Positions 2,517 to 18,356 of a DNA stretch of 18,357 bases are shown in pieces (the first letter of the stretch is position 1; every line of letters starts with the position of its first letter). Under the pieces are notes generated by a model. The model was not told where the DNA came from and made no database searches. It saw nothing but the letters and a program-made list of their open reading frames with translations. The translations under genes were made by a program, and so were the position numbers. Origin of the DNA: a virus (lineage: Duplodnaviria > Heunggongvirae > Uroviricota > Caudoviricetes). Location: the IMG/VR virus record IMGVR_UViG_2597489893_000006, positions 1 to 18,357 of that record; one strand, given 5' to 3'.

Positions 2517-2550
2517 ATAACTTCGTATAATGTATGCTATACGAAGTTAT
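2517..2550. other. loxP: loxP recombination site
   Basis: Exact ATAACTTCGTATA-ATGTATGC-TATACGAAGTTAT: 13-bp inverted repeats flanking the 8-bp asymmetric spacer. Confidence 0.98.
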
Positions 2551-2593
2551 TAGGTCTGAAGAGGAGTTTACGTCCAGCTGCGCATAAAAATCA

Positions 2594-2610
2594 AGAATTA
2601 TTAGAGCAAT
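2594..2610 (-). promoter_or_regulatory. C1 operator (reverse orientation) upstream of coi-c1
   Basis: agaattattagagcaat matches the reverse complement of the operator consensus at 15/17. Confidence 0.6.
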
Positions 2611-2670
2611 AAATTTTGAGAGAAAAATCCCACTCCACCAGCCAAAAACTGGATTGTTTTTCATAGTTGT

Positions 2671-2697
2671 TTGACAATTGCTCTAATAAATTATAGT
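2671..2697 (+). promoter_or_regulatory. Rightward promoter (-35 TTGACA, -10-like TATAGT) with an embedded C1 operator, directed at coi-c1
   Basis: TTGACA at 2671-2676 is followed directly by ATTGCTCTAATAAATTA at 2677-2693 (16/17 to consensus), overlapping TATAGT. Confidence 0.6.
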
Positions 2698-2931
2698 TTT
2701 GCCGCCGTTTCGTAATACAACTTTGGATTCACTATTTAATGTGTCTTCAGCGTTGTAGAGCGGCTCAGAAGGAAATGAGCAAACAGGGAAACCTTATACA
2801 ACGGCATTACAGCTATGCATTGCTCATCTTACACACAGCGCAATGTTGTAGGATTACCCCAGCATGGATCATGGGTGAAACAGTAGGTCAGAGCTTCAGG
2901 CTCTGTGTTGTCAATACAGTGAGGCATAATT

Positions 2932-3141
2932 ATGGCTTTCATTCCACCAACCATCGACGACGTTAGACATTGCTCTAACGCTTTATCTGTAGACCCCGCC
3001 GAAACCGACGCTGCCCGCGCCATTGCTGAACACTACTCAAAGATATCCAATCAGGAGTACCGCATCACCCAAGACGACCTGGATGATCTCACTGACACAA
3101 TCGAATATCTCATGGCCACTAACCAGCCAGACTCACAATAA
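2932..3141 (+). CDS. coi: Coi, C1 inactivator
   Basis: 69-aa ORF immediately upstream of and co-oriented with c1, size and position as in P1; acidic C-terminus. Confidence 0.8.
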   Translation: MAFIPPTIDDVRHCSNALSVDPAETDAARAIAEHYSKISNQEYRITQDDLDDLTDTIEYLMATNQPDSQ

Positions 3142-3157
3142 ATGCACTAATAAATCT
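3141..3157 (+). promoter_or_regulatory. C1-operator-like 17-mer in the coi-c1 intergenic region
   Basis: aatgcactaataaatct matches the consensus at 14/17; sits at the coi stop codon. Confidence 0.45.
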
Positions 3158-3186
3158 ATTATTTTCGTTGGATCCTTCTATAATGG

Positions 3187-3229
3187 TGGCCAACAACTCC
3201 CAGTGTAATCCGCTGTGAGTTGTTGGCCA
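3187..3229 (+). promoter_or_regulatory. Perfect 13-bp inverted repeat (stem-loop) 10 nt upstream of the c1 Shine-Dalgarno
   Basis: TGGCCAACAACTC at 3187-3199 and GAGTTGTTGGCCA at 3217-3229 with a 17-nt loop; no downstream U-tract. Confidence 0.4.
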
Positions 3230-3251
3230 TGTCAATTCTGGAGGAGGATCA

Positions 3252-4103
3252 ATGATAAATTATGTCTACGGCGAACAACTGTACCAGGAGTTCGTCAGCT
3301 TCAGGGATCTCTTTCTAAAAAAAGCTGTTGCACGCGCCCAACACGTTGATGCCGCCAGCGACGGTCGTCCTGTTCGCCCGGTTGTCGTTCTGCCGTTCAA
3401 AGAAACGGACAGCATTCAGGCTGAAATTGATAAATGGACTTTAATGGCGCGGGAACTGGAACAGTACCCAGACCTCAATATCCCAAAGACTATTTTATAT
3501 CCAGTGCCTAACATCCTTCGCGGTGTGCGTAAGGTTACAACTTATCAGACAGAAGCTGTGAACAGCGTCAACATGACCGCTGGCCGCATTATTCATCTGA
3601 TTGATAAGGACATTCGCATCCAGAAAAGCGCGGGGATCAATGAGCACAGTGCGAAATACATAGAGAACCTGGAAGCAACAAAAGAGCTAATGAAGCAGTA
3701 CCCGGAGGATGAAAAATTCCGTATGCGTGTACACGGCTTTAGCGAAACAATGTTGCGCGTCCATTACATTTCCAGTAGCCCTAACTACAATGATGGTAAA
3801 TCAGTTAGTTACCATGTGCCGCTGTGTGGTGTGTTTATCTGCGATGAAACTCTCCGTGATGGAATCATCATCAACGGTGAATTCGAGAAAGCAAAATTTA
3901 GCCTTTATGACTCTATAGAACCGATCATCTGCGACCGCTGGCCGCAGGCAAAAATATATCGCCTGGCAGATATTGAAAATGTAAAAAAACAAATTGCCAT
4001 CACTCGCGAAGAGAAAAAGGTCAAATCAGCCGCATCAGTTACGCGCAGCCGTAAAACTAAGAAGGGGCAGCCAGTAAACAGCAACCCCGAAAGCGCGCAA
4101 TAG
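3252..4103 (+). CDS. c1: C1 repressor of lysis (primary immunity repressor)
   Basis: 283-aa ORF with strong GGAGGAGG Shine-Dalgarno; length, position next to coi and the operator sites fit P1 C1. Confidence 0.93.
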   Translation: MINYVYGEQLYQEFVSFRDLFLKKAVARAQHVDAASDGRPVRPVVVLPFKETDSIQAEIDKWTLMARELEQYPDLNIPKTILYPVPNILRGVRKVTTYQTEAVNSVNMTAGRIIHLIDKDIRIQKSAGINEHSAKYIENLEATKELMKQYPEDEKFRMRVHGFSETMLRVHYISSSPNYNDGKSVSYHVPLCGVFICDETLRDGIIINGEFEKAKFSLYDSIEPIICDRWPQAKIYRLADIENVKKQIAITREEKKVKSAASVTRSRKTKKGQPVNSNPESAQ

Positions 4104-4128
4104 TTTTCCATCCGGCATGGTCAAATTG

Positions 4129-5613
4129 TTATTCATTAAGCCATGCCAGAGCTTCATCAACCTGCGCTTCGTCTTCGACGCTAAGCACTTCATCTTGGGG
4201 AACATAGTTCGCCAACATAGCGAAACAATATGTATCCCAATGGTCCGGTGAGTGCAGGTTGAGTTTTTTCTTCATATCTTCCTTTGACATCACCTTCCAT
4301 TGACCTGCGGAATTTATCCCTACCGGTATCTTTGATGCTTCCTCTATAGTCGCAGCCCCCTTATCAAGCCGCATACGCCCTGATTTTACAGCTTCTGCCG
4401 CCTGAATATTCGCGAAAGCGCGCATATCGAAATAAAGGCTTTTATCTTCACGGCTGTGCATCTTTTTACCCCAGCGGATACGCTGGACGGTAATGCCATA
4501 GCGTTCGTACATTAGATCAGCCGTCGATTTCCCCAAGCCATCGCCATCAATAGCTATGGTTATGTTCGGGAACCGTTCTGGGTTACATTCTGCGAAAATC
4601 TTGGCGGCTAACTGCGTTTCTGTAACGTCTGTGTATTCCAGCATACGATAGTTGATTACACGGCGTTTATTTCGCTGGCCGGACACCATCATGATATTAA
4701 TAACGGACTTATCTCGTCCTGTGCCACCAGCAACGTCAACACATGCAACCCAGCCCCATCCTTTGGCAATCTTGACCTTTCGCCGCGTCGCCCGCTCAAC
4801 CTCATCACGACCAAGAAGAAAGCCATCTTGAGATTTGGGAAATTCACCACGTACTTTGATCATGTACATGGGGTTATCACGACCGCCATACTCCGCAAGT
4901 TTTGCTCGTATAAATTTTGCATCTACAAGCGGAGATTCTTCACTATTCAGTATTATCGCAGTAAACAATCCATCAGGATTTCCCGGGCGAATAGCTAGTC
5001 TGTGGTGTGAATCGTAGAAATAGCCTGAAGGTCGCGTAGGCTGGGAAAGAAGCAGAATACGGTTATCCTTACCGGTCAGCGCACCTGTTATCACACTGAA
5101 TGCTTTATCACTCACACCCGACGCTTCGTCGATGATATACAAGAGATGATCGGCGTGTTCACCAGCCAACGCCTCCTCATTTCCGGGGCGACAGGACTTT
5201 ATCAATATTGTCCAAACACCCTTGCCAGTCACCTCAAAAAAAGACGTTTCTGTAAGAATGAAATACTTCGACAACCACGGGAATCTGCTAACAGCAGTAG
5301 CCCAATTGCTCTTTATGTATTTGAAAATACCATCAAGGACTTGCTGTCTTTTGTTAGCGACCAGAATGACGCGAGCGCCGGGGAAAAACATGATGAAGAG
5401 TATTGCAATGATACTCGTCATATCCGATTTACCAGTACCATGGCCGGAGGTCACACTTGTCCAACTGCCGTCCTGCTGCGTGGACTCAATGATCTCATCC
5501 TGCTGCCAGGTTGGTGTCTTCCCAAACAACACATCAGCGGCCGCAATCCAGTCATAACGATATAGCGCCACAAGCTCGCGCCAACGTGGGTCCGTTACGC
5601 AACTTCTGGCCAT
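4129..5613 (-). CDS. pacB: PacB, terminase large subunit
   Basis: 494-aa ORF with a Walker-A-like SGHGTGKS motif; start overlaps the pacA stop (TAATG); convergent with c1. Confidence 0.9.
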
Positions 5614-6806
5614 TAATCATCATCCCCGTACAGTTTGCGGGTAACTTCTTCGTCTTCCTCCTCGTCTTCGTCCAGATCCTGTTCAAGCCATGCTTCGTTT
5701 GATATGCCTTCCGCATCGACATCACCATAACCACCTGTATCGACGATATCGGCAATTTCTTCTCTACGATGCTCAATCCACAATGCCGCATCAGCGCGGC
5801 GGCTGGCGGCCCGTTCTCGCGCGATTTTATCCAGATCTTCAAGTGATGGAGCGCCAGATGCTGTTTGGTTTTCCTCATCATCGGTATTGGTCTTAGGAGC
5901 ACGCAGATCGGCTTTGATTTGCTCCAGCATCAGGGGCGGCACTTTTCCTCCATGCGCCTCGATGAATTCAGCCGCTTCCAGCACTGACCAGTTATTTTCA
6001 CGCTTTCGTTCGTATGCCAGCTTAACAATGCCAGCTTGCCCCATAGACAAAGCGTGCTTTTCCGCCTCCCGGCTTTCTTTTCGATAGTTATTCCGGATGC
6101 TGTAAATGGTGTTGATCAGGCTGCTTATCTGCGCGGAACAGCTGTTTAGCATGCTCGCGATACGGTATTCAGGCGGAGTACCTTCATCATCGTCTTTTTG
6201 CTGATCGCGCATTTCCTGCACCAGGCGAATACACGTATCCCTGGCGTTCTCCAGCATAAGGAGATGAGAAAGAGACTTTTCCAGAAGAGTGGTTTCCAGA
6301 ACATCGGCCCCGGACCGACGCAACATAGCGCGCGCGGCCTTCCGCGCTTCAACGTTATCTATCAGGTAATCGCCAGCTTCGAATTCAAAGCGTTCACCAT
6401 CATCATCCAGGGTGTCGCGTTCCAGGCGATCACGTAAGGTCCGGTGGGCGCGGGTGATCACGTCATGATCATCTGAACGATCATTTATGCGCTTATTTTG
6501 GCGCTTCGCATTATCGACTGCGGCACTGACAACGGCATTAACTCTTTGTTTTTCATCCATTTCAGCCACAACGTGATCACCTGCACGTTGATCATTAGCG
6601 TGATCAATGATCATGCTTTTTAGTGGTTTCCTGACAGGCTTATTTGGCTTACGGCTGTCCGCTGTTCCGGTGTCTTCTTTGAATGCACGGAGATAACGAC
6701 GTGCGGTGTTTGGGTTGAGATTAAACTCGGCGGCATATTGTGCGATGGTGTAACCACCATCTCGCGCCAGGCGAGCAAAATTCTTCTTGTGATCGTCCCA
6801 GGTCAC
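5613..6806 (-). CDS. pacA: PacA, terminase small subunit / pac-recognition protein
   Basis: 397-aa ORF with an acidic C-terminal tail; contains the GATC-hexamer pac site within its coding sequence, as in P1. Confidence 0.9.
6427..6614. other. pac: pac packaging site: two clusters of TGATCA(G/C)-type hexamers flanking an ~90-bp region
   Basis: Cluster 1 at 6427-6484 (cGATCAc, TGATCAC, TGATCAT, cGATCAt) and cluster 2 at 6574-6613 (TGATCAC, TGATCAT, TGATCAA, TGATCAT); eight GATC sites in under 190 bp inside pacA. Confidence 0.8.
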
Positions 6807-6892
6807 TTATGCTTCCTTTCGTATAAAACTCTTTTTGACGCGAGGGTAACGAAAGTCACATGTCAAAAGGCCCGGAACGGGCAAGCAATCAA

Positions 6893-7345
6893 TCAGATAC
6901 GTGCGGATGTGGCATTACCGTAATGACGGTGCTGACGGACCACCTTATTGAAAAATTGACGCGCCATTACCCAAGGCTGGTGCTCCCGGCGTTCCTTTTC
7001 GTCCTGCGTCATATAGAGTTCGTTCTGGAGTTTTTCATCAAACCGGCGCGGAGCGCGACTGCGGCGAAAGAATTCAGGATTCAGAGAGTGGATCTGAAAT
7101 CTACGTGGGCGTGTACTGTCATCAATCAAAACAGACGAATACTTAGACACAGCGATAGCCTTTAAGCGCAGATAAACATCGCGCTTATCGACATCCAGAT
7201 GCGGGTATTCCTTTTCAAGAATTGCTGCGAGTTCTTTCGCTGATAGAAGAGATTTAGTGCGGATCATGTAATCCGCAATCTCGTACGATGTTATTCGTGA
7301 GTGATTTATTTCCATGAAGTGGCGTCCCTGCCAGTTAAGTAACAT
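6893..7345 (-). CDS. lpa: Lpa, late promoter activator
   Basis: 150-aa ORF between pacA and a C1-operator-containing promoter, matching P1 order; AGGTGA Shine-Dalgarno 4 nt upstream of the ATG. Confidence 0.75.
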   Translation of the reverse strand: MLLNWQGRHFMEINHSRITSYEIADYMIRTKSLLSAKELAAILEKEYPHLDVDKRDVYLRLKAIAVSKYSSVLIDDSTRPRRFQIHSLNPEFFRRSRAPRRFDEKLQNELYMTQDEKERREHQPWVMARQFFNKVVRQHRHYGNATSARI

Positions 7346-7415
7346 CCTGTCACCTACTGATTAGCCCATGTCAACTAATCAACGTCGAATATAATACCCT
7401 CGATTAAAGAAATAG

Positions 7416-7432
7416 CAATACATTAGAGCAAT
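7416..7432 (-). promoter_or_regulatory. C1 operator within the lpa promoter region
   Basis: caatacattagagcaat matches the reverse complement of the consensus at 14/17. On the minus strand it is followed by TTGCTA, 17 nt, TATTAT, then the lpa ribosome-binding site. Confidence 0.55.
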
Positions 7433-7433
7433 T

Positions 7434-8477
7434 TTATCTAACACTCGACGAATGACTTGTGATAGCGCCAACTCCAAGCGCGTAATCAAAGAACAATCGT
7501 TGATGCATCGCCAGCCTACCGTGCGTCTTCTCCCAATTATCGCGGTCACGCTCAATATCACGCTGGCATGACTGGCACAGAGGAATAGCATAAATGTCAT
7601 GCGCGCATAATCGACTATGACGAACTATATAAGGCGTAATGTGAGCGCCAGCTCCCGCAGCTCCACAGCCACAGCATGGACGGGAAGCCACAAAGTCCAT
7701 GTACTCGGGCAATTTTAGCGATTGAAGTTTTGGTATTTTGAAATGCGCCATACCTGGGTCGGAGTCAACATCCACAGGGCATACTTTTGCACGCATCGGC
7801 GCGGCGCGTTCTTCCATCATCTGAACATATGCTGTAGCGCGATCGTCATACGGGCGAATATCCGCCTCTTTCAGAGGTCCGCTATCCTGCGGAATAGCCT
7901 TCATCTTATTTATTGATATGCGGCAGACTTCTTCCGGCATCAGGTGCATCATGTTGCGCATGAAAGCCCACCAGCACAGCTCCTGAATACTTAAATCATG
8001 GCTATTTGAAAGGCCCATTTCCTGACGGGCGACATCCAGTATCCAGTTAACGCGATTATTGTGCAGCGTTTCTTTCAGCTCATTAAAACCACGCATCCGA
8101 TAATGGTGATCGTGATGCCAGCACAACAACACCGCGCTATTGTCTCGTTCAGCGTGGACAATATGGTTGTCACACCAACTACGATCTGCGGCCTGGCATT
8201 GCCCCTCTTTCCTGCGCAACCACGCCACCAGCGCGTCAATTCCACCAATACGGCGAAACAGTTCATCGCTGTTAAAAAACGGCTGCAACGCCTCATTTGT
8301 TGCCATGGTTTGCTCGGTAACAACGAGGCCGTCTTCCATGTGCTCGATTAACTCACGCGGCACCGGCTCCATAATAAATTTACGGCCAGCCTCCACCAGC
8401 TTTCTGACCTCCTGATCCACTTTGAACGTGGCGAGGCCAAGCTCTTTCTGTACAAAGGGAGTAATTACGGCTTTCAC
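7434..8477 (-). CDS. Cys/His-rich hypothetical protein (347 aa), possibly zinc-binding or HNH-like; occupies the post-doc position
   Basis: GTG start preceded by AAGGTG. Motifs CDNH...CWHHDHH...HNN and CCGCG...H...H..C.H...C..C. Co-oriented in the phd-doc operon; no confident family assignment. Confidence 0.6.
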
Positions 8478-8504
8478 ATCACACCTTTAATCACTGATTG
8501 GGCT

Positions 8505-8684
8505 TTATCTGCTGCCCGGCATTCTCTGTTTAAGCACAACCATTTCCTGACGGCATAACACAGCAATAGCAGTCCTGGCTCCAATTTGCTTACCAACCAG
8601 GTATTGCTTTACCTCGCGGCGACTCACGCCATCAAGAAGCATCTTTAACGCTTCACGGGACAATTTGTTGTATTTGCGTGCCAT
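8505..8684 (-). CDS. Small helix-turn-helix-like protein (59 aa), translationally coupled to doc
   Basis: ATG 4 nt after the doc stop, with GGAG 7 nt upstream. Sequence LSREALKMLLDGVSRREVKQYLVGKQIGARTAIAVL resembles a resolvase/invertase-type HTH. Confidence 0.5.
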   Translation of the reverse strand: MARKYNKLSREALKMLLDGVSRREVKQYLVGKQIGARTAIAVLCRQEMVVLKQRMPGSR

Positions 8685-8688
8685 TAAT

Positions 8689-9069
8689 CTACTCCGCAGA
8701 ACCATACAATCTACGTAACGTGTCGGCGACAGAAGATACAGATATCTCGCCAGTCGCAGCGCCTACAGTAAGGTCTGCCAGTTCAGGTGAATCAAATACC
8801 TGCACCCCGTTACGGCGTAGAAATAGCAGCGCGCTGTTTAGCGCGGTACGCTTATTGGCATCATTGAATATATGCCCTCTCGCTGTAGCCACCAGGTAGG
8901 TGGCGGAGACTTCGAAAAGGTCGGTGATCTCTTCGTAGGCAACTCTGGCCTGAACTCTCCCGATAATGGCCTCTGCCCTACCCGGATCTGACATTCCCGG
9001 CAGGCCGCCGTAGCGGCTTATATTCGCATCATGAAGCGCAATAAGTTCTTCCGGTGATATATGCCTCAT
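8689..9069 (-). CDS. doc: Doc toxin (Fic-family kinase)
   Basis: 126-aa translation with the Fic motif HIFNDANKR; start overlaps the phd stop (TAATG). Confidence 0.95.
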
Positions 9070-9290
9070 TATCGGTTAACCAGTTCCTTGTTGGTGGAGT
9101 CCAGGGTGTCAAACAGGGATGCAAATTCAGCATCCAGCGCCGCTTTTTTGTAGGCTTCGAAAGTAGCCTTGCTGACAATTACTGCTGGCTCACGACCTCT
9201 GCGGGTGATTTCAACCTCTTCCCCGGCTTCAACATTGTTGAGCACTTCAGAAAGGTTGCCGCGCGCGGTACGGAAGTTAATGGATTGCAT
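9069..9290 (-). CDS. phd: Phd antitoxin
   Basis: 73 aa from ATG at 9290 ([49 protein letters not shown]...), recognisable as P1 Phd. The ORF track's longer form starts at an upstream GTG. Confidence 0.95.
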
Positions 9291-9293
9291 AAA

Positions 9294-9330
9294 CACCTCG
9301 TGTACTCGTTATGTGTACACAATTATAAAC
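9294..9330 (-). promoter_or_regulatory. phd-doc promoter/operator: perfect TATAAT, palindrome TGTGTACACA and half-site GAGTACAC, then GAGGTG Shine-Dalgarno
   Basis: Minus strand reads TTTATAATTGTGTACACATAACGAGTACACGAGGTGTTTATG. Phd is known to autoregulate through palindromic operator sites in this promoter. Confidence 0.6.
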
Positions 9331-9466
9331 TTCACAGGCATAAAGCACCAGCACTTTGCGGCTTAACAAACCTCTAGGCAGGTCATTCGTAGCCTAATGT
9401 CCGAACTGCTAAAGCATCCAAGTTGCTGTAGAATCACCGCCAATTACATAAGCCTGAAATAAGTGG

Positions 9467-10501
9467 ATGAAAATGACAAGTATTCAACAACGTGCAGAGC
9501 TTCATCGTCAAATCTGGCAAATTGCTAACGATGTCAGGGGTTCGGTCGATGGATGGGATTTTAAGCAATACGTTCTGGGCGCACTTTTCTACCGTTTTAT
9601 CAGCGAAAATTTTTCCAGTTATATTGAAGCCGGTGATGACAGTATCTGTTATGCGAAACTGGATGACAGCGTAATTACTGATGACATTAAAGACGATGCC
9701 ATCAAAACTAAAGGCTACTTCATCTACCCCAGTCAGCTTTTCTGCAACGTAGCTGCGAAAGCAAATACCAATGACAGACTGAACGCAGATTTAAACAGCA
9801 TCTTCGTTGCTATCGAAAGTTCTGCTTACGGCTACCCTTCAGAAGCAGACATCAAAGGTTTGTTTGCTGATTTCGATACCACCAGTAACCGCCTGGGTAA
9901 CACCGTTAAAGATAAAAATGCCCGCCTGGCTGCGGTTCTGAAAGGGGTTGAAGGGTTAAAACTTGGTGACTTCAACGAACATCAGATTGACCTGTTCGGT
10001 GATGCCTATGAGTTCCTGATTTCTAACTATGCGGCAAATGCCGGTAAGTCAGGCGGTGAGTTCTTTACACCGCAGCACGTCTCCAAGCTGATTGCACAAC
10101 TGGCTATGCACGGGCAGACCAACGTTAACAAAATCTACGACCCGGCAGCGGGTTCCGGCTCACTGTTGTTGCAGGCTAAAAAGCAGTTTGATAACCATAT
10201 CATCGAAGAAGGCTTTTTTGGTCAGGAAATCAACCATACAACCTATAACCTGGCACGTATGAACATGTTTTTGCACAACATCAACTACGACAAGTTTGAT
10301 ATCAAGCTGGGTAATACACTGACTGAGCCACACTTCAGAGATGAAAAACCGTTTGATGCCATCGTTTCTAACCCGCCGTATTCGGTGAAATGGATTGGCA
10401 GCGATGACCCGACGCTGATTAACGATGAACGTTTTGCCCCGGCTGGCGTCCTGGCCCCCAAATCCAAAGCTGACTTTGCGTTTGTACTACATGCGCTGAA
10501 C
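9467..10501 (+). pseudogene. hsdM: hsdM (Type IC methyltransferase), 5' fragment of 345 codons, truncated by IS903
   Basis: Translation carries the AdoMet motif [10 protein letters not shown] and the N6-adenine motif NPPY. The reading frame runs into the IS903 inverted repeat and stops after 4 IS-encoded codons (GFVE-stop). Confidence 0.9.
10493..10501. repeat. IS903 target-site duplication, left copy (GCGCTGAAC)
   Basis: Identical 9-mer found at 11559-11567 directly flanking the other inverted repeat. Confidence 0.9.
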
Positions 10502-11558
10502 GGCTTTGTTGAATAAATCAGATTTCGGGTAAGTCTCCCCCGTAGCGGGTTGTGTTTTCAGGCAATACGCACGCTTTCAGGCATACCTGCTTTCGTCATT
10601 TTGTTCAGCGCTCGTACCAGGGCCATAGCCTCTGCAACCTGACCATCGTAGTCACGCAGTGTCAGTGAACCCCCGAACAGCTGTTTTACCCGGTACATCG
10701 CCGTTTCCGCTATCGAGCGACGGTTGTAATCTGTTGTCCATTTCCACCGCGCATTACTCCCGGTCATTCGCTGATTAGCCACTGCACGGTTACGGTCTGC
10801 ATATTCACCGGGCCAGTAACCCGCACCTTTTCGGGGTGGGATAAGCGCGCTGATTTTCTTACGCCGCAGTTCATCGTGACATAGCCGGGTATCGTAAGCG
10901 CCATCGGCGGCGGCTGACCTGATTTTCCGGTGGGTTTGCCGGATTAACCCGGGGAAGGCCTCTGAGTCCGTAACGTTGTTCAGCGACAGGTCAGCGCAGA
11001 TGATTTCATGTGTTTTACTGTCAACGGCGAGATGCAGCTTACGCCAGATACGGCGGCGTTCCTGGCCATGCTTTTTGACTTTCCACTCGCCTTCACCGAA
11101 GACCTTCAGCCCGGTGGAATCAATTACCAGGTGTGCGATTTCACCCCGGGTGGGCGTTTTGAAACTGACATTAACCGACTTTGCCCGCCTGCTGACACAG
11201 CTGTAATCCGGGCAGCGTAGCGGAACGTTCATCAGAGAAAAAATGGAATCAATAAAGCCCTGCGCAGCGCGCAGGGTCAGCCTGAATACGCGTTTAATGA
11301 CCAGCACAGTCGTGATGGCAAGGTCAGAATAGCGCTGAGGTCTGCCTCGTGAAGAAGGTGTTGCTGACTCATACCAGGCCTGAATAGCTTCATCATCCAG
11401 CCAGAAAGTTATGGAGCCACGGTTGATGAGGGCTTTATTGTAGGTGGGCCAGTTGGTGATTTTGAACTTTTGCTTTGCCACGGAACGGTCTGCGTTGTCG
11501 GGAAGATACGTGATCTGATCCTTCAACTCAGCAAAAGTTCGATTTATTCAACAAAGCC
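10502..11558 (-). mobile_element. IS903 (IS5 family, IS903 group), complete 1057-bp copy
   Basis: Perfect 18-bp terminal inverted repeats GGCTTTGTTGAATAAATC (10502-10519) and GATTTATTCAACAAAGCC (11541-11558); length 1057 bp; 9-bp direct duplication on both sides; transposase ORF inside. Confidence 0.95.
10558..11481 (-). CDS. IS903 transposase (DDE), 307 aa from a GTG start
   Basis: Translation ...AKQKFKITNWPTYNKALINRGSITFWLDDEAIQAWYE... matches IS903/IS102 transposase as I recall it. The ORF track's 322-aa form begins at an upstream TTG. Confidence 0.88.
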   Translation of the reverse strand: MAKQKFKITNWPTYNKALINRGSITFWLDDEAIQAWYESATPSSRGRPQRYSDLAITTVLVIKRVFRLTLRAAQGFIDSIFSLMNVPLRCPDYSCVSRRAKSVNVSFKTPTRGEIAHLVIDSTGLKVFGEGEWKVKKHGQERRRIWRKLHLAVDSKTHEIICADLSLNNVTDSEAFPGLIRQTHRKIRSAAADGAYDTRLCHDELRRKKISALIPPRKGAGYWPGEYADRNRAVANQRMTGSNARWKWTTDYNRRSIAETAMYRVKQLFGGSLTLRDYDGQVAEAMALVRALNKMTKAGMPESVRIA

Positions 11559-11567
11559 GCGCTGAAC
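11559..11567. repeat. IS903 target-site duplication, right copy (GCGCTGAAC)
   Basis: Identical to 10493-10501. Confidence 0.9.
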
Positions 11568-12095
11568 TATCTTTCGGCCAAAGGTCGTGCTGCGATTGTC
11601 TGCTTCCCGGGTATTTTTTACCGTGGCGGCGCGGAGCAGAAAATCCGTCAGTATCTGGTCGATAATAACTATGTCGAAACCGTGATTTCACTGGCACCGA
11701 ACCTGTTCTTTGGCACCACTATTGCTGTAAACATTCTGGTGCTGTCTAAACATAAAACGGATACCAAAGTTCAGTTTATTGATGCCAGCGAACTGTTCAA
11801 AAAAGAAACCAACAACAATATCCTGACCGATGCCCATATCGAACAGATTATGCAGGTATTTGCCAGCAAGGAAGATGTTGCTCATCTGGCGAAATCTGTT
11901 GCGTTTGAGACTGTTGTCGCGAATGACTATAACCTGTCGGTGAGCAGCTATGTGGAAGCGAAAGATAACCGCGAAATTATCGATATCGGTGAGCTGAATG
12001 CAGAGCTGAAAACCACGGTCAGCAAAATCGACCAGTTGCGTAAAGATATTGATGCAATTGTGGCTGAAATTGAAGGCTGCGAGGTGCAGAAATGA
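11559..12095 (+). pseudogene. hsdM: hsdM 3' fragment (C-terminal 175 codons plus the duplicated ALN codons)
   Basis: Frame continues from the duplicated GCG CTG AAC into [49 protein letters not shown]... Removing the IS and one duplication copy restores a 520-codon ORF (the 1066-bp insertion is a +1 frame shift, which matches the observed frames). Confidence 0.9.
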
Positions 12096-13297
12096 GCGAG
12101 ATGAGTTATCTGGAAAAATTGCTGGATGGGGTTGAGGTTGAGTGGAAGACACTTGGGCAAACTTGCAAAATTGAAACAGGAAAGCTTAATGCGAATGCGG
12201 CTGTTGATGATGGAGAGTATATGTTCTTCACGACAGCCAAAGAGACAAGCAAAATTGATAAATTCCGCTGGGATACAGAGGCATTGCTGATTGCAGGCAA
12301 TGCGAATGTTGGTGAGGTGAAGCATTACATCGGCAAGTTTGAGGCTTATCAGCGCACCTATGTTCTGACAAATTTCGACGAAAATGTAAGTGTTAGATTT
12401 TTGTATTTTGTGCTTAGCCATAGCCTGAAGAAATATCTCGAGGAAAGAACAAATAGCGCGGCAATGACATATATCGTGCTATCAACCTTAGAGAATTTCC
12501 CTATCCCCATCCCCTGCCCGGATAATCCGGAAAAATCCCTTGCCATCCAGTCTGAAATCGTTCGGATTCTGGATAAATTTACTGCACTTACCGCTGAGCT
12601 TACCGCTGAGCTTAACATGCGTAAAAAACAGTACAACTACTATCGCGACCAGTTGTTGAGTTTTAAAGATGGTGAGGTTGAGTGGAAGACTTTGGGGGAA
12701 ATTGGAGATTTTACATATGGATATGCAGCCAAAGCCATGGATTCAGGAGATGCCCGTTTCGTGAGAATTACTGACATAAATAAAGACGGGAAGCTATCGA
12801 AAGAAAACCCAATGTACGTTGAATTAAATGAGGAAAATGAGAAATATACCTTAGACAAAAATGATTTACTCATGGCAAGAACTGGGGCAACCTTTGGTAA
12901 AACAATGATTTTTGAAGAAGATTATCCAGCAGTATACGCTGGTTTTTTAATAAAGTTGAACCTAAATAAAACGATTATTAATGCCAAATATTACTGGCAC
13001 TTTGCACAAAGTGATTTTTTTTGGGAACAGGCTAATAAATTAGTATCTGGTGGTGGGCAACCACAGTTTAATGCTAATGCACTGAAACAAGTCAGAGTAC
13101 CTATTCCATACCCATCTCACCCTCAAAAATCTTTAGACGAACAGGGGCGTATTGTGGATATTCTGGATAAGTTTGATGCAATCGCAGCTTCCATCACCGA
13201 AGGTCTTCCGCGTGAAATCGAGTTGCGCCAGAAACAATACGAATACTACCGTGATTTACTGTTCAGTTTCCCGAAACCTGAAACTGCCAGTAATTAA
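12092..13297 (+). CDS. hsdS: HsdS, Type IC specificity subunit
   Basis: 401 aa; ATG overlaps the hsdM stop (ATGA). Conserved N-terminal, central and C-terminal regions with internal duplication (VEWKTLG twice; ILDKF twice) and a central TAELTAEL repeat; two variable target-recognition domains. Confidence 0.9.
12587..12610 (+). repeat. Two tandem copies of the 12-bp repeat CTTACCGCTGAG (encoding TAEL-TAEL) in the hsdS central conserved region
   Basis: Directly visible tandem repeat. In the EcoR124I/EcoR124II family the copy number (2 versus 3) sets the spacer length of the recognition sequence. Confidence 0.85.
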
Positions 13298-13418
13298 TTG
13301 ATCATTGCTACCGATCGGACCACCTTAACACCCGGTCAGTATATAGACTATTTTTTACGCGCCGGAAGTCACCATTACCCCCCTTCCGGCCCTTGCCAGA
13401 CGGCACAAAGGATGCGCT

Positions 13419-16400
13419 ATGACTCATCAGACACACACCATTGCTGAATCCAATAACTTTATCGTTCTTGATAAGTACATCAAAGCTGAGCCAACAGGCG
13501 ACAGCTACCAGAGCGAATCGGACCTGGAACGTGAACTGATTCAGGACCTGCAAAATCAGGGTTATGAATTTATTTCCGTAAAATCACAGTCGGCAATGCT
13601 GTCCAATGTTCGGGAACAGCTTCAGAGCCTCAATGGTGTGATGTTTAATGACAGCGAGTGGCGGCGCTTCACGGAGCAGTATCTGGACAACCCCAGCGAT
13701 GGTATTCTGGATAAAACCCGTAAAATCCATATCGACTATATCTGCGACTTTATTTTTGATGACGGGCGACTTGAGAACATCTATTTGATAGATAAAAAGA
13801 ATCTCATGCGCAATAAGGTGCAGATTATCCAGCAGTTTGAACAGACGGGTTCTCATGCTAACCGTTATGACGTCACGATCCTGGTTAATGGTTTACCGCT
13901 GGTGCAAATCGAACTAAAAAAACGCGGGGTGGCGATTCGTGAGGCTTTCAACCAGATACATCGTTACAGTAAAGAGAGTTTTAACAGCGAAAATTCCCTG
14001 TTTAAGTATCTGCAACTGTTTGTCATTTCTAACGGCACCGATACCCGTTATTTTGCCAACACGACAAAGCGCGATAAAAACAGTTTTGACTTCACCATGA
14101 ATTGGGCGAAATCAGACAACACGCTGATTAAAGACCTCAAAGACTTTACCGCTACCTTTTTCCAGAAACATACTCTGCTGAATGTTCTGGTGAACTACAG
14201 CGTTTTTGACAGTAGTCAGACGCTACTGGTGATGCGACCGTACCAGATTGCCGCCACCGAGCGCATTCTGTGGAAAATTAAGAGTTCCTTTACAGCGAAG
14301 AACTGGTCAAAACCGGAAAGCGGTGGGTATATCTGGCACACTACCGGTTCTGGTAAAACCCTCACCAGCTTTAAAGCCGCGCGTCTGGCAACAGAGCTGG
14401 ACTTTATTGATAAAGTCTTCTTTGTGGTCGACAGGAAAGACCTCGATTACCAGACCATGAAGGAATATCAGCGTTTTTCGCCAGACAGCGTCAACGGCTC
14501 GGAAAATACCGCAGGCCTTAAACGAAATCTGGATAAGGACGATAACAAAATTATCGTCACTACTATTCAGAAACTCAATAACCTGATGAAAGCAGAAAGC
14601 GACCTGCCTGTATATAATCAGCAAGTGGTGTTTATATTTGATGAATGCCACCGCAGCCAGTTTGGAGAAGCGCAGAAAAACCTGAAGAAGAAATTCAAAC
14701 GCTATTATCAGTTTGGTTTTACCGGCACACCTATTTTCCCGGAAAACGCCTTAGGCTCAGAAACGACCGCCAGCGTATTTGGTCGTGAATTGCATTCGTA
14801 TGTAATTACCGATGCGATTCGTGATGAAAAAGTGCTCAAATTCAAGGTGGACTACAACGATGTGCGGCCACAGTTTAAGTCTTTAGAGACAGAAACTGAC
14901 GAGAAAAAACTAAGTGCGGCTGAAAATCAGCAGGCGTTTCTTCATCCCATGCGTATACAGGAAATTACGCAATATATTCTGAATAACTTCCGCCAGAAGA
15001 CGCACCGTACTTTCCCTGGCGCAAAAGGTTTTAATGCTATGTTGGCAGTGAGCAGCGTGGATGCTGCAAAAGCCTATTACGCGGCGTTTAAACGGTTACA
15101 AGAGGAAGCCGCTAATAAATCTGCAACTTATAAACCGCTGCGTGTTGCGACAATCTTCTCCTTTGCCGCTAATGAAGAACAAAATGCCATTGGTGAAATT
15201 TCCGATGAAACTTTTGATACCAGCGCAATGGACAGCAGTGCTAAAGAGTTTCTTGACGCTGCAATTCGTGAGTATAACAGCTATTTTAAAACTAACTTCA
15301 GCACCGACGGTAACGGTTTTCAGAACTACTATCGCGATTTAGCCCAACGGGTTAAAAATCAGGATATCGATCTGTTAATTGTCGTTGGGATGTTTTTAAC
15401 CGGCTTCGACGCTCCAACATTGAACACGCTATTCGTCGATAAAAACTTGCGTTTTCACGGCCTGATGCAGGCATTTTCCCGCACCAACCGCATTTATAAC
15501 GCCACTAAAACCTTCGGTAACATTGTCACTTTTCGGGATCTGGAACGCTCAACCATTGATGCCATAACGCTGTTTGGTGATAAAAATACCAAAAATGTGG
15601 TGTTAGAAAAGAGTTATGCAGAGTATATGGAAGGTTTTACTGATGCTGCCACCGGTGAAGCCAAACGCGGCTTTATGGCAGTAGTTTCAGAACTGGAACA
15701 ACGGTTCCCTGACCCTGCCAGTATTGAAAGTGAAAAAGAGAAGAAAGACTTCGTTAAACTGTTTGGCGAATACCTGCGTGCCGAGAACATCCTGCAAAAC
15801 TATGATGAATTTGCCACGCTAAAAGCCCTGCAACAAATCGATCTTAGCGATCCTGTTGCGGTAGAAAAATTCAAAGCAGAACATTATGTGGATGATGAAA
15901 AGTTCGCTGAATTGCAAACAATTCGTCTCCCTGCTGATCGCAAGATTCAGGATTATCGTTCTGCCTATAACGATATTCGCGACTGGCAGCGCCGTGAGAA
16001 AGAAGCTGAGAAAAAAGAGAAATCAACCACTGACTGGGATGACGTGGTTTTTGAGGTCGATTTGCTGAAGTCTCAGGAAATAAACCTGGATTATATCCTT
16101 GGACTGATTTTCGAACACAACAGACAAAATAAAGGCAAGGGCGAAATGATCGAAGAGGTCAAACGCTTAATTCGTTCAAGCCTGGGGAACCGGGCGAAAG
16201 AGGGCCTGGTGGTCGATTTTATTCAGCAAACGAACCTGGATGATTTACCAGACAAAGCCAGTATCATTGAGGCATTCTTTACGTTTGCTCAACGCGAACA
16301 GCAACGTGAAGCAGAAGCATTGATAAAAGAAGAAAATCTCAATGAAGATGCAGCAAAACGCTATATTCGCACGTCTTTAAAACGCGAATACGCCACCGAA

Positions 16401-16535
16401 AATGGCACAGAATTAAACGAAACATTACCAAAACTTAGTCCGTTGAATCCGCAATATAAAACGAAAAAACAGGCAGTTTTCCAGAAAATCGTCTCGTTTA
16501 TTGAGAAGTTTAAAGGCGTAGGCGGAAAAATATAG
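13419..16535 (+). CDS. hsdR: HsdR, Type IC restriction endonuclease/translocase subunit
   Basis: 1038 aa with an N-terminal PD-(D/E)xK-like nuclease motif (D...IELKK), Walker A TGSGKT and a DECH box ([10 protein letters not shown]); length equals EcoR124I HsdR. Confidence 0.93.
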
Positions 16536-16550
16536 CCCAATTCGTGTTTT

Positions 16551-16580
16551 TCTTGCGGGTTCTTAATTAAACCCGCAAGA
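16551..16580. repeat. Perfect 10-bp inverted repeat hairpin 16 nt after the hsdR stop, without a 3' U-tract
   Basis: TCTTGCGGGT (16551-16560) and ACCCGCAAGA (16571-16580) with a 10-nt loop. Confidence 0.4.
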
Positions 16581-16614
16581 GCTCGTGGGGTTCCAAATGG
16601 CTAATATACTCCCC

Positions 16615-16701
16615 TTACCCATGCGCGACGATGCCGTCAAAAGTGATAGAGAACAGCCAGAAATAGATCGCGGCCATAATGATTTTGAATGCCGTGTTCA
16701 T
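16615..16701 (-). CDS. Candidate small hydrophobic peptide, 28 aa (MNTAFKIIMAAIYFWLFSITFDGIVAHG)
   Basis: ATG preceded by AGGAG with an 8-nt spacer; one predicted transmembrane-like segment. Lies antisense between the hsdR stop and the plus-strand terminator, downstream of a C1-operator-like site. Confidence 0.3.
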   Translation of the reverse strand: MNTAFKIIMAAIYFWLFSITFDGIVAHG

Positions 16702-16727
16702 ATTTTCAGCTCCTGTGATTGATTGGA

Positions 16728-16761
16728 AACATGCCGCGCCTTGCGGCATGTTTTTATTTTT
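16728..16761 (+). terminator. Rho-independent terminator (plus-strand orientation)
   Basis: AACATGCCGC-GCCTT-GCGGCATGTT (10-bp stem) followed by TTTTTATTTTT. Confidence 0.7.
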
Positions 16762-16783
16762 ACTTTCTCTGTTTTAAAAATCA

Positions 16784-16800
16784 AGATTTATTAGAACAAT
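16784..16800 (-). promoter_or_regulatory. C1-operator-like 17-mer abutting the stop codon of the HAD-like gene
   Basis: agatttattagaacaat matches the reverse complement of the consensus at 15/17. It shares the extended context AAAAATCAAGA with the operator at 2594-2610. Confidence 0.5.
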
Positions 16801-17306
16801 TATTGTTGATGAAGAAGCGCATTTTCATACTCCCTGACCATTAATGTAAGTACGCCATGACTCCTGAACACACGCGCCACTTCAATCTTATCTTCCAGCG
16901 CGAACGCAATTTTACTTAGACCAATTTTCTTCAGGAGATCAATCTTTGCTGGACCGTCATTTCTGTCATCGGTGGCAGGACGCATAGATAGCAAAGGCTC
17001 AGCCCCGTTTGTTACGTACTTCCGCAGCCAGGCTCGTGTTTTATCCCTTGCGATCTCACAGCGCCCGGTTACAAACCAGACCGTGTAAACGTTAAATAAC
17101 TGGCGCACCATATCAATAACTGGAGTGATGGGAGCATCAGTGTCACAGGCAAGGTTAAACTCGTTCCAGTGCTCTGTTAATGCACCTTTGCCAGGTGGTG
17201 GAAGTAAATGCAGCCTGTCTTCCGTTGCCTCTGATATCGTCCCATCAATATCTACTATGACGATGTACGGACGTTCCTGGTGTGCGTGTTTATTGAAAAT
17301 ACTCAA
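16800..17306 (-). CDS. HAD-superfamily phosphatase-like protein (DxDGT motif), 168 aa
   Basis: N-terminal IVIVDIDGTISE matches HAD motif I (as in polynucleotide kinase 3'-phosphatase domains and other HAD enzymes). Start is TTG preceded by GAGGAGGG. Confidence 0.6.
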   Translation of the reverse strand: MSIFNKHAHQERPYIVIVDIDGTISEATEDRLHLLPPPGKGALTEHWNEFNLACDTDAPITPVIDMVRQLFNVYTVWFVTGRCEIARDKTRAWLRKYVTNGAEPLLSMRPATDDRNDGPAKIDLLKKIGLSKIAFALEDKIEVARVFRSHGVLTLMVREYENALLHQQ

Positions 17307-17325
17307 ATGCCCTCCTCATTGGACG

Positions 17326-17358
17326 AAAAAAATGCTGGTGGGAGCACTCCACCAGCAT
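17326..17358 (-). terminator. Rho-independent terminator (minus strand) after the coiled-coil protein gene
   Basis: Minus strand reads ATGCTGGTGG-AGTGCTC-CCACCAGCAT followed by TTTTTTT. Confidence 0.65.
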
Positions 17359-17378
17359 TAAAAGTGACACTGTAACTA

Positions 17379-18356
17379 TCAGCGAACGTAAATAGTGCCG
17401 CCGTTCTCTTTTTCCCATGCATCGCTACGTGCATAGCAAACATCGAGAAGTCTTCTTGCCGCAGTTTCCTCTAAACCCAATTCGACAACCAACTGCTCAT
17501 GACGGCGGGTAACCACATCAAACAGGGTATGCAGCCCTTTAGTTGCCAGATCATCAATGAATTCCGGTTCGAACGGCAGCTCTGCATCTGCCAACATAAC
17601 CTCTTGCGCCCACTCAACTCGACGGACCAATTCCGGGCGGCGGCTTTCCATCTCTTTACAGATCAATTCATGGAAGAACTCTACCCAACCTTCCGGCTGA
17701 AACTCGCGGAAAATTGCCAACGGCTGGAAGTTTGGCATCAACCATTCGTTGATTCGGATATCAATGGCATAGCCCATGTCGCAGCAGAACTGATAAGCAA
17801 AGTCCAGCTTAGAAACGATATAAGGACGCTCGTTATTGAACTCTTTAGGCGATGAGATCCCATAAGCCAGGAGGCGCGGGAAGAAGGAGATTTGCCCTAA
17901 CGTCGGATGAAGTTTGCTTGCAGGGAAACGGCGCTCAGTAATGCCATACATTTCCTTCTTGAGCGTCGCAAATTTGGCATTCTCATTAACCAGCGCGGTA
18001 ACCTCTGCTTTTTTATTAGCAAATGCCACGCGCGCCTCGCTTGCATCTTTAATAGTTTTTTTGAGCTGTTGGTTAAGGTCGGCGACCTGCTTACGCAGTT
18101 CCTGTCGCTCGCTTTTAGCTTTGTTATAGCGTTTCTCAAGGTTAAAAGGATCAAGTTTCATGATCTCTTTATATTGAGATTTTAGCGTTGAAATCTGTGA
18201 GTTCCGCAGTTCAACCATCGCGGTCATTTCATTGAGTTTTGTTTCCAGCTCAATGCTTATACGTTCGGCATTATCAGCACGCTGGTTGGAGTCATGCGTC
18301 GCATCGTCGATCGCGTCCTGTTGCTGGTGACCTGCCCCCACGATTAGATACAACAC
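17379..18356 (-). CDS. Hypothetical protein with predicted coiled-coil region and C-terminal globular domain; 5' end beyond the window
   Basis: Open frame with no stop up to the window edge. About 100 residues of heptad-like Lys/Glu/Leu-rich sequence (ELETKLNEMTAMVELRNSQISTLKSQYKE...KQVADLNQQLKK...) are followed by a mixed hydrophobic/aromatic domain; no recognised catalytic motif. Confidence 0.55.
   Translation of the reverse strand: MLYLIVGAGHQQQDAIDDATHDSNQRADNAERISIELETKLNEMTAMVELRNSQISTLKSQYKEIMKLDPFNLEKRYNKAKSERQELRKQVADLNQQLKKTIKDASEARVAFANKKAEVTALVNENAKFATLKKEMYGITERRFPASKLHPTLGQISFFPRLLAYGISSPKEFNNERPYIVSKLDFAYQFCCDMGYAIDIRINEWLMPNFQPLAIFREFQPEGWVEFFHELICKEMESRRPELVRRVEWAQEVMLADAELPFEPEFIDDLATKGLHTLFDVVTRRHEQLVVELGLEETAARRLLDVCYARSDAWEKENGGTIYVR

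Follow-up and report, generated by a model that had tools for sequence, protein, structure and literature searches.

A 28-codon open reading frame (ORF) that points into the 3' end of a type I restriction gene, hsdR, raises the question of what it is: the toxin half of a toxin/antisense pair, a gene with a role of its own, or no gene at all. It lies in a viral DNA of 18,357 nucleotides (nt; IMG/VR record IMGVR_UViG_2597489893_000006), and we call this whole stretch the window. A sequence-only reading of the window had described the ORF as encoding a hydrophobic peptide antisense to the hsdR 3' region, bracketed by a C1 operator and a plus-strand terminator, and had proposed either a type I toxin/antisense arrangement or a small membrane protein under C1 control. 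As judged from its alignment to P1, a model phage and a much-used tool of genetics, the window is a P1-like phage-plasmid (Punavirus). We found that the ORF is, by the pattern of its conservation, a genuine, conserved, uncharacterised small membrane-protein gene. We think it likely that this gene is the first cistron of a unit controlled by the C1 repressor through the operator Op88, and that its convergence with hsdR is secondary to the presence of a restriction cassette. The gene and its start are as follows.

16615..16701, minus strand: small gene, 28 codons plus TAA, product MNTAFKIIMAAIYFWLFSITFDGIVAHG; ATG at 16701-16699, stop at 16617-16615; G22D relative to the P1 consensus.
16710..16714, minus strand: Shine-Dalgarno (SD) sequence AGGAG, 8 nt before the ATG and preceded by the conserved CAATCAATCAC motif.
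16702..16749, minus strand: N-terminal extension of a 44-amino-acid (aa) version of the ORF, whose ATG lacks an SD and falls within the hairpin at the predicted start of the transcript.

The ORF listing gives this frame in its longer form, as a 44-aa ORF at 16615..16749. We considered that form as the real product and rejected it, since its start lies within a hairpin and lacks an SD and since the extension is not conserved, being out of frame in other lineages. For the same reasons the 28-aa form is the likely product, and the 44-aa extension is probably not translated. The AGGAG ribosome-binding site that the sequence-only reading had pointed out is present at 16714-16710; its GGAGC is kept in all six lineages described below, and the SD is unpaired in the centroid fold and engaged only in a 3-bp helix in the minimum free energy (MFE) structure. 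The best 19-aa Kyte-Doolittle window of the small protein covers residues 7-25 (mean 1.94), and an AlphaFold model of a 46-aa homologue is a single helix, with a block-mean pLDDT of 85-92 across residues 1-20. The product is thus a predicted single-pass membrane protein, in agreement with the single transmembrane-like peptide noticed earlier. A chance scan for SD-preceded hydrophobic ORFs was not used as evidence, its cut-off of 2.0 having dropped the G22D copy (1.94). The 44-aa frame is annotated in SJ46 (J46_0098) and in phi456 (Orf75), at L084 2453-2587 and L002 6166-6300. A protein of 28 aa falls below the minimum length of common gene callers, which probably explains both this mis-start and the frequent omission of the gene.

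With the 44-aa form as the query, a word-indexed search of 5.8 billion proteins returned only near-identical Escherichia coli entries labelled "hypothetical" or "membrane protein, partial." Further lineages were found downstream of divergent pap homologues and by a small-alignment search, whereas scanning one genome per species with Pap as the anchor yielded just two close E. coli loci and no distant relatives. The resulting family consists of single-helix proteins of 28-53 aa in six P1-like lineages.

P1 type: 28 aa.
Cronobacter phage JK004: 53 aa, beside a Pap that is 72% identical.
Salmonella P1-like plasmids of 86-93 kb (L087, L088): 46 aa.
L089/L090 and L091, metagenome-assembled: 53 aa.
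L093, metagenome-assembled: 48 aa.

An exhaustive hidden Markov model search of 1.84 billion representatives gave 12 matches, every one of them in this family, so that the family is a narrow one, limited to P1-like elements. Scans of four family members against Pfam, PHROG, NCBIfam and PADLOC gave no match below E = 0.03, in keeping with the earlier remark that the peptide resembles no known type I toxin.

Across the alignment, M1, K6, A11 and W15 are invariant, position 13 is Y or F, and the exchanges through residue 24 are conservatively hydrophobic. Over 23 aligned codons, lineages differ at 2-6 second positions, 8-17 first positions and 5-18 third positions. The proportion of synonymous differences (pS) between lineages is 0.5-1.0 against 0.24-0.48 for nonsynonymous ones (pN), with the exception of JK004 versus L091 (pS 0.19, pN 0.24), and two close pairs show nonsynonymous-to-synonymous counts of 0:2 and 2:5 (dN/dS about 0.1). 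Frame, start and amino-acid pattern are thus kept across lineages in which synonymous sites are saturated, as expected of a protein-coding sequence. Disruption of the peptide in close relatives, which would have spoken against a gene, was looked for: of 83 P1-lineage loci, 82 have an unbroken frame, and the ORF is present in 870 PLSDB records. A few elements have the small gene broken at codon 20 by foreign DNA (...FSINKK...), among them one IMG/VR locus within L003-L082 and the source of protein P0007/P0020, so that insertions can land inside the small gene too.

These data bear on the simplest rival, a chance ORF in an intergenic leader whose nucleotides are conserved only for the sake of RNA or DNA signals. 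The ORF is very short, and the P1 reference annotation omits it; moreover, the region is 95-100% identical within the P1 lineage, so that intactness there says little by itself. The divergent lineages, however, preserve not only the frame and its start but also the SD and the hydrophobic pattern, with third positions saturated, and no alternative frame or antisense ORF is kept. We consider a chance ORF extremely unlikely.

The position of the gene is as constant as its frame. In every lineage without an hsd cassette, the small-gene stop abuts or overlaps the start of the next, co-directional gene. In P1 and SJ46, the small gene is followed by TAAGGGGGATGCATG; its stop lies inside the pmgT SD, and the pmgT start follows. 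The junction is an ATGA overlap in JK004, L089 and L091, TGATG in L093, and TAA plus 6 nt in the Salmonella plasmids. The downstream genes themselves vary between lineages, and Pfam searches with PmgT, PmgU and PmgV and with the downstream genes of JK004 and SJ46 gave no matches. Peptide variants in the databases carry different C-terminal extensions after ...IVAHG, which implies recombination junctions at or just after the stop codon. Taken together, the junctions and the variable downstream genes identify the small gene as a fixed first cistron beside a variable region. Upstream, pap is missing from the Salmonella plasmids, so that the ORF directly follows pmgS; the order of operator, hairpin and small gene directly after pmgS is found in L087, L088 and L093, all without pap. 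In view of these pap-less lineages, pap is an insertion/deletion polymorphism just upstream of the operator.

A stop codon always so tightly linked to the next start would also suit a regulatory upstream ORF, in which the act of translation would matter, by coupling ribosomes to the next gene or by melting structure in the leader, and the peptide itself would have no role. Such a coupling device needs no amino-acid pattern, and the pattern that is conserved therefore counts against it: second codon positions, K6, A11, Y13 and W15 are kept despite saturated synonymous divergence. Furthermore, the 53-aa forms are conserved over their full length, and the gene is kept intact where no downstream gene remains. 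We regard an upstream ORF of this kind as improbable.

We then considered how the gene would be expressed. The leader contains the following features.

16784..16800, minus strand: C1 operator ATTGTTCTAATAAATCT, the OpmgT (formerly Op88) of P1, with 2 mismatches to the consensus ATTGCTCTAATAAATTT.
16756..16784, minus strand: predicted sigma-70 promoter (P1pmgT in the P1 annotation), with -35 TTGATT at 16784-16779, a 17-nt spacer and -10 AAAAAT at 16761-16756.
16727..16753, read on either strand: hairpin with an 11-bp stem and a 5-nt loop, AAACATGCCGC/GCGGCATGTTT; on the minus strand at the predicted mRNA 5' end, on the plus strand terminator-shaped together with the T-tract.
16754..16766, plus strand: T-tract TTATTTTTACTTT, which completes a plus-strand intrinsic terminator and is called terminator-like by the scanner.

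Along the minus strand the order is therefore the pap stop codon, operator, predicted promoter, hairpin, SD and ORF, the first base of the operator being the last base of the pap stop codon. A pattern search found 7 C1 operator-like sites in the window against 0.11 expected, and the one beside the small gene maps onto the protein_bind feature OpmgT/Op88 of NC_005856. It is kept in JK004, the Salmonella plasmids, L089-L091 and L093. The C1 operator reported next to the ORF is thus a true orthologue of OpmgT/Op88, and the proposal of a small membrane protein under C1 control was well founded, the protein being conserved in six lineages and always directly downstream of a C1 operator. The description of the ORF as bracketed by operator and terminator holds in that both elements exist but not in their placing, as both lie upstream of the ORF, on the same side.

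All six lineages share one layout: the operator, a TTGATT that overlaps its last base (TTGTTT in JK004), a 17-nt spacer, nAnAAT, 5-7 nt, the hairpin, a motif and the ATG. The motif, CAATCA(C/T)nGGAGC, has an extra CAAT ahead of it in the P1, JK004, Salmonella and L093 lineages. In the window, the predicted transcription start falls near 16750, and in all six lineages no more than about 2 nt separate the beginning of the hairpin from the start that the conserved -10 predicts. The stems differ in sequence from lineage to lineage (GGCCGC/GCGGCC, AGGCCAC/GTGGCCT, GGCGGTCGC/GTGACCGCC and GGCAGTCAC/GTGACTGCC), the P1 form being longer. We counted covariation on the four lineages with 9-nt loops, leaving out the P1 hairpin: pairing holds in 96% of cells, and both sides have changed in 4 of 7 pairs, whereas slid controls give 14-54% pairing and no double changes. 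It follows that the hairpin structure has been selected. From the 5'-end dependence of RNase E, we infer that on the sense mRNA it may act as a 5'-terminal stabilising stem-loop.

The same hairpin is strong on the plus strand, as the sequence-only reading had said. It folds with -20.7/-20.8 kcal/mol, with z = -6.3 on the plus and -3.8 on the minus strand, and the scanner reports a terminator-like element at 16727-16766. The plus-strand T-run, however, occurs only in the P1 lineage. It is absent from JK004, the Salmonella plasmids and L089-L093, where the opposite-strand hairpin is followed by GAAAACATTC, GGTGAGTATT or AAATGATTCT. Thus, the plus-strand terminator is peculiar to one lineage and is not what the hairpin is conserved for; P1 itself carries it although it has no convergent gene that would need one.

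How, then, does the small gene come to face hsdR? Two stretches of the window align to P1 by blastn: window 16611-18327 with P1 82766-84482 (pmgS, pap and the pap-pmgT spacer; 98.6% identity) and window 2534-9366 with P1 87970-94800 (phd, doc, pdcB, lpa, pacA, pacB and c1; 98.7% identity). The interval between these stretches (9367-16610) is taken up by a type IC hsd cassette in the opposite orientation, which also contains hsdS and replaces P1 84483-87969 (pmgT to humD).

16610/16611, no strand: junction of P1 backbone and hsd cassette, 4 nt past the small-gene stop, from blastn against P1 and 80 loci.
9366/9367: the other cassette boundary, an exact edge.
13419..16535, plus strand: hsdR, 1038 aa, type IC (EcoR124/EcoDXXI-like), with Pfam HSDR_N, SWI2_SNF2, T1R_D3-like and EcoR124_C; convergent with the small gene.
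16800..17306, minus strand: pap, homologue of a HAD-type polynucleotide 3'-phosphatase (Pfam HAD_PNKP and P1 annotation), upstream of the operator.
3252-4103: c1 repressor ORF, 283 aa, within the stretch aligned to the P1 c1 region at 98.7% identity.

In the window, pmgT and the eight genes next to it, up to humD, have thus been lost to the inverted cassette, which leaves the small gene as the sole gene of its unit and convergent with hsdR. This arrangement is found in 22 of the 83 P1-lineage viral-contig loci and in 256 of 873 plasmid records. The pmgT-to-humD block is a recognised variable region of P1-like phage-plasmids, "variable region 8" (PMC9603915). The earlier observation that the ORF lies opposite hsdR, within its 3' region, is structurally correct for the window; it is not intrinsic to the gene, as P1 homology begins at 16611 and the relatives are co-directional. 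The small gene faces hsdR because the cassette has replaced the rest of the operon, and since the convergence is only a by-product of the cassette, the two genes are, in our reading, not a toxin/antisense pair.

That conclusion was reached against a rival that has real attractions: a type I toxin-antitoxin-like module, with a toxic peptide repressed through base pairing by a plus-strand RNA, either the hsdR 3' untranslated region or a short antisense RNA ending at 16727-16766. The peptide is small, hydrophobic and a single helix. Because no canonical terminator lies between, hsdR transcripts would cross the ORF to the hairpin and T-run, so that hsdR RNA would be fully complementary to it, and the terminator there is strong; the T-tract at 16754-16766 is likely, from its sequence, to be the 3' end of hsdR read-through transcripts in the window. 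On the minus strand, the scanner found no terminator after the small gene, whose transcript would therefore run into hsdR. However, convergence exists only in the hsd-insertion variants, whereas in P1, SJ46, JK004, the Salmonella plasmids, L089-L091 and L093 the genes are co-directional and often overlap. The scanner found no plus-strand promoter-like site in 16300-17400, and the opposite-strand T-run is missing from the other lineages. The SD is exposed, unlike that of the folded, translationally silent toxin mRNAs, and the C1 operator already governs transcription: C1 should keep the gene silent in the lysogen, the state in which hsdR would be expressed.

Searches for known components agree. 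Against type I toxin families (Hok, Ldr, TisB, Ibs, ShoB, Fst and others) the Pfam, NCBIfam, PHROG and PADLOC scans gave no match below E = 0.01, and no Rfam family of antitoxin RNAs matched. Rfam gave no family match in the whole window at the gathering threshold, and at E up to 10 in 16300-17100 it gave only chance-level, hairpin-driven matches, for example, GcvB (19 bits; gathering score 42). Of the features that define type I systems, the locus has the small single-helix hydrophobic ORF; it has no antitoxin RNA gene, no sequestered SD and no membership in a toxin family. We conclude that the type I arrangement does not hold for this locus, and we consider such a module very unlikely.

A different use of the convergence would be regulatory. 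In hsd-carrying elements, the C1-controlled promoter, formerly that of pmgT, would fire through the small gene into the 3' end of hsdR, so that induction would produce antisense transcription against hsdR and damp self-restriction. The leader hairpin and T-run would also act as an insulator, shielding the early promoter in the lysogen from occlusion by transcription of hsdR. If true, the antisense transcript would provide an induction-coupled damping of self-restriction of newly replicated phage DNA. We rate this idea as a long shot, only slightly better than the toxin-antitoxin module.

Loss of the downstream operon raises the further question of whether the copy in the window still does anything. 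We computed polymorphism in the P1-lineage loci (L003-L082) with anchored extraction, and all of the following counts rest on few, phylogenetically linked events. The pap gene is equally diverse in loci of the pmgT type (pi 0.044) and the hsd type (0.045). Small-ORF pairs differ at 0.54 synonymous codons in the hsd type against 0.68 in the pmgT type, figures that are similar, but at 1.10 nonsynonymous codons against 0.07. The consensus peptide is departed from in 15 of 22 hsd-type copies and in 2 of 58 of the pmgT type, and some of the changes add charge to the helix (G22D, in the window, G23D and G28R). Among distinct variants, the nonsynonymous-to-synonymous ratio is 8:5 in the hsd type and 2:3 in the pmgT type. 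These differences suggest relaxed selection on the small gene once the downstream operon has been lost.

One could accordingly read the ORF in the window as a relic, a real gene in P1 that has drifted without function since the hsd cassette arrived. The nonsynonymous excess at equal pap diversity, the share of copies off the consensus and the charges placed in the helix all fit a relic. Yet none of the hsd-type copies has acquired a stop or a frameshift or lost its start, and the SD, hairpin and operator are kept in 22 of 22. The distinct variants are few and their sequences phylogenetically non-independent, and the replacements fall mainly in the C-terminal third, a part of the protein that differs between lineages as well. 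On balance, we think a relic less likely than not.

Several other observations weigh against a functional first cistron of the Op88 unit. The gene is absent from the P1 and P7 reference annotations. A literature search returned nothing on the small gene or its peptide and nothing relevant on Op88 or pmgT; it found no transcript, ribosome-profiling or proteomic evidence for the ORF, and the published P1vir RNA-seq papers do not treat or resolve it. In a CRISPRi screen, the neighbours pap, pmgT, pmgU and pmgV were non-essential, and the small ORF was not among the targets (PMC10695390). The family is small and its members closely related, so that the covariation and dN/dS rest on few independent lineages. 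The TTGATT-17-AAAAAT promoter is weak, is given only as "predicted" in the P1 annotation and matches the consensus at 8 of 12 positions, which is why the scanner did not call it. The scanner prefers another -10, AATAAT at 16804-16799, just upstream of the operator; initiation from that promoter would place the hairpin ~40 nt into the leader, away from the 5' end. C1 would block either promoter. To these points must be added that the window's own copy may no longer be under selection, replacements being common in hsd-carrying elements, and that what the peptide does is something we infer entirely.

With these points taken into account, a real, C1-controlled first cistron remains the reading that we favour, and it would work as follows. 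In the prophage-plasmid state, C1 on the operator overlapping the -35 would keep the small gene off. Inactivation of C1 would release transcription from near 16750, and the stem-loop at the mRNA 5' end may guard the transcript against RNase E-dependent decay. The exposed AGGAG would then allow translation of the 28-aa peptide, essentially one transmembrane helix with the M1, K6, A11, Y/F13, W15 pattern, which would enter the inner membrane early in lytic development. There the peptide might work by helix-helix contact with a host or phage membrane component; we put forward this specific mode of action only tentatively, and it is more doubtful than the identity of the gene. In the window, the P1-lineage leader hairpin and opposite-strand T-run would in addition be the first available terminator for hsdR.

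The C1-controlled early operons of P1 (Olpa/Plpa-lpa, OpmgRa-pmgR-pmgS and OpmgT/Op88-pmgT; NC_005856) have the same 17-bp asymmetric operator, found here at the position of P1 Op88. As at the annotated Plpa, the operator overlaps the -35 of a sigma-70-type promoter (here a predicted one), and C1 is encoded in the same element. The difference is that the P1 annotation starts the Op88 operon at pmgT, with nothing between pap and pmgT, whereas here a conserved 28-codon gene precedes pmgT. With the type I systems (hok/sok, ldr/rdl, tisB/istR-1, ibs/sib and shoB/ohsC) the locus shares a small, hydrophobic, single-helix peptide and, in the window, a convergent transcript that would be complementary to the ORF. 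Unlike them, the small gene has neither an antisense RNA gene dedicated to it nor a ribosome-binding site that is sequestered, and its sequence is unrelated to theirs; it has instead a conserved operon-leading position and repressor control, and its antisense overlap is secondary.

The small inner-membrane regulators of enterobacteria (MgrB, MgtS, AcrZ, PmrR and the like) are of similar size, with a single transmembrane helix and conserved aromatic or small helix residues, and they offer a lead only. By analogy, the likeness to MgrB-type proteins suggests helix-helix action on a larger membrane protein. The small protein differs from these regulators in lacking sequence similarity to them and in being encoded by a phage-plasmid and controlled by a repressor. 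For the leader, 5'-terminal stem-loops are known to stabilise E. coli mRNA, as in the ompA 5' untranslated region, and the dependence of RNase E on the 5' end is an established principle. The leader hairpin is like the ompA-type stem-loop in lying within about 2 nt of the predicted start and in having its structure kept while its sequence is not; it is unlike it in that the P1-lineage hairpin also has a terminator form on the opposite strand and that the start is only predicted. In our reading, the small gene would work like other repressor-controlled P1 early genes, and it shares only a general form with the bacterial small membrane regulators.

The neighbouring cassette has relatives of its own. 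Like the EcoDXXI and EcoR124 type IC loci, it has an EcoR124_C domain in hsdR, and it sits between phd-doc and the small-ORF region, as in the P1 annotation; this likeness belongs to the cassette and not to the small gene. According to the P1 annotation, the hsd loci EcoDXXI and R124/3 are flanked by DNA matching that on both sides of the pmgT-to-humD block, and with the same two flanks the EcoDXXI locus, described as from a conjugative plasmid, sits in P1-like DNA. Many conjugative IncF plasmids have, behind hsdR, 84 bp left over from the small gene (codons ~3-28) and ended by IS1; one example is L092 (NZ_CP045279.1; positions 1501-1800, compared with window 16450-16694). About 324 PLSDB records have a 2-28 match of this kind, and NCBI labels the product "membrane protein, partial." By these matches, the IncF copies of the type IC hsd locus are traced to a P1-like element.

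In the window, unlike in the EcoDXXI and EcoR124 loci, hsdM is split by an insertion sequence: an N-terminal piece at 9467-10516 (HsdM_N and N6_Mtase positions 2-171) and a C-terminal piece at 11682-12095 (N6_Mtase positions 210-310) are separated by a minus-strand DDE transposase gene at 10558-11526 (DDE_Tnp_1_5, DDE_Tnp_1). Because of this split, the type I system in the window is probably inactive for modification and restriction alike. Two further sets of hairpins lie nearby.

16551-16580, no strand: strong hairpin of 11-12 bp directly after the hsdR stop, part of the hsd cassette, with T5 before the stem on the plus strand; neither strand has a T-run behind the stem.
17331-17384, minus strand: two terminator-like hairpins with T-runs, between pmgS and pap.

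The 85-nt stretch 16536-16620, which contains the first of these, folds with an MFE of -24.8 kcal/mol on the plus and -25.6 kcal/mol on the minus strand; the terminator scan gives no call for the 16551-16580 hairpin, which may serve as a 3'-end stabiliser. The hairpins at 17331-17384 suggest that pap may be transcribed apart from pmgR-pmgS.

No new kind of system is revealed by this locus, and the toxin/antisense idea fails. What the analysis does provide is a corrected view of a P1 transcription unit: the unit under Op88 control opens with a 5' hairpin and a small membrane protein, both of them conserved. The small-gene stop lies at the border of variable region 8, a recombination hot spot in which P1-like phage-plasmids exchange type IC restriction systems and other cargo. 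The finding corrects the 44-aa start in some records and explains the "membrane protein, partial" remnants that adjoin hsdR in IncF plasmids, and it supplies a concrete small-protein candidate for early lytic functions of P1-like phage-plasmids.

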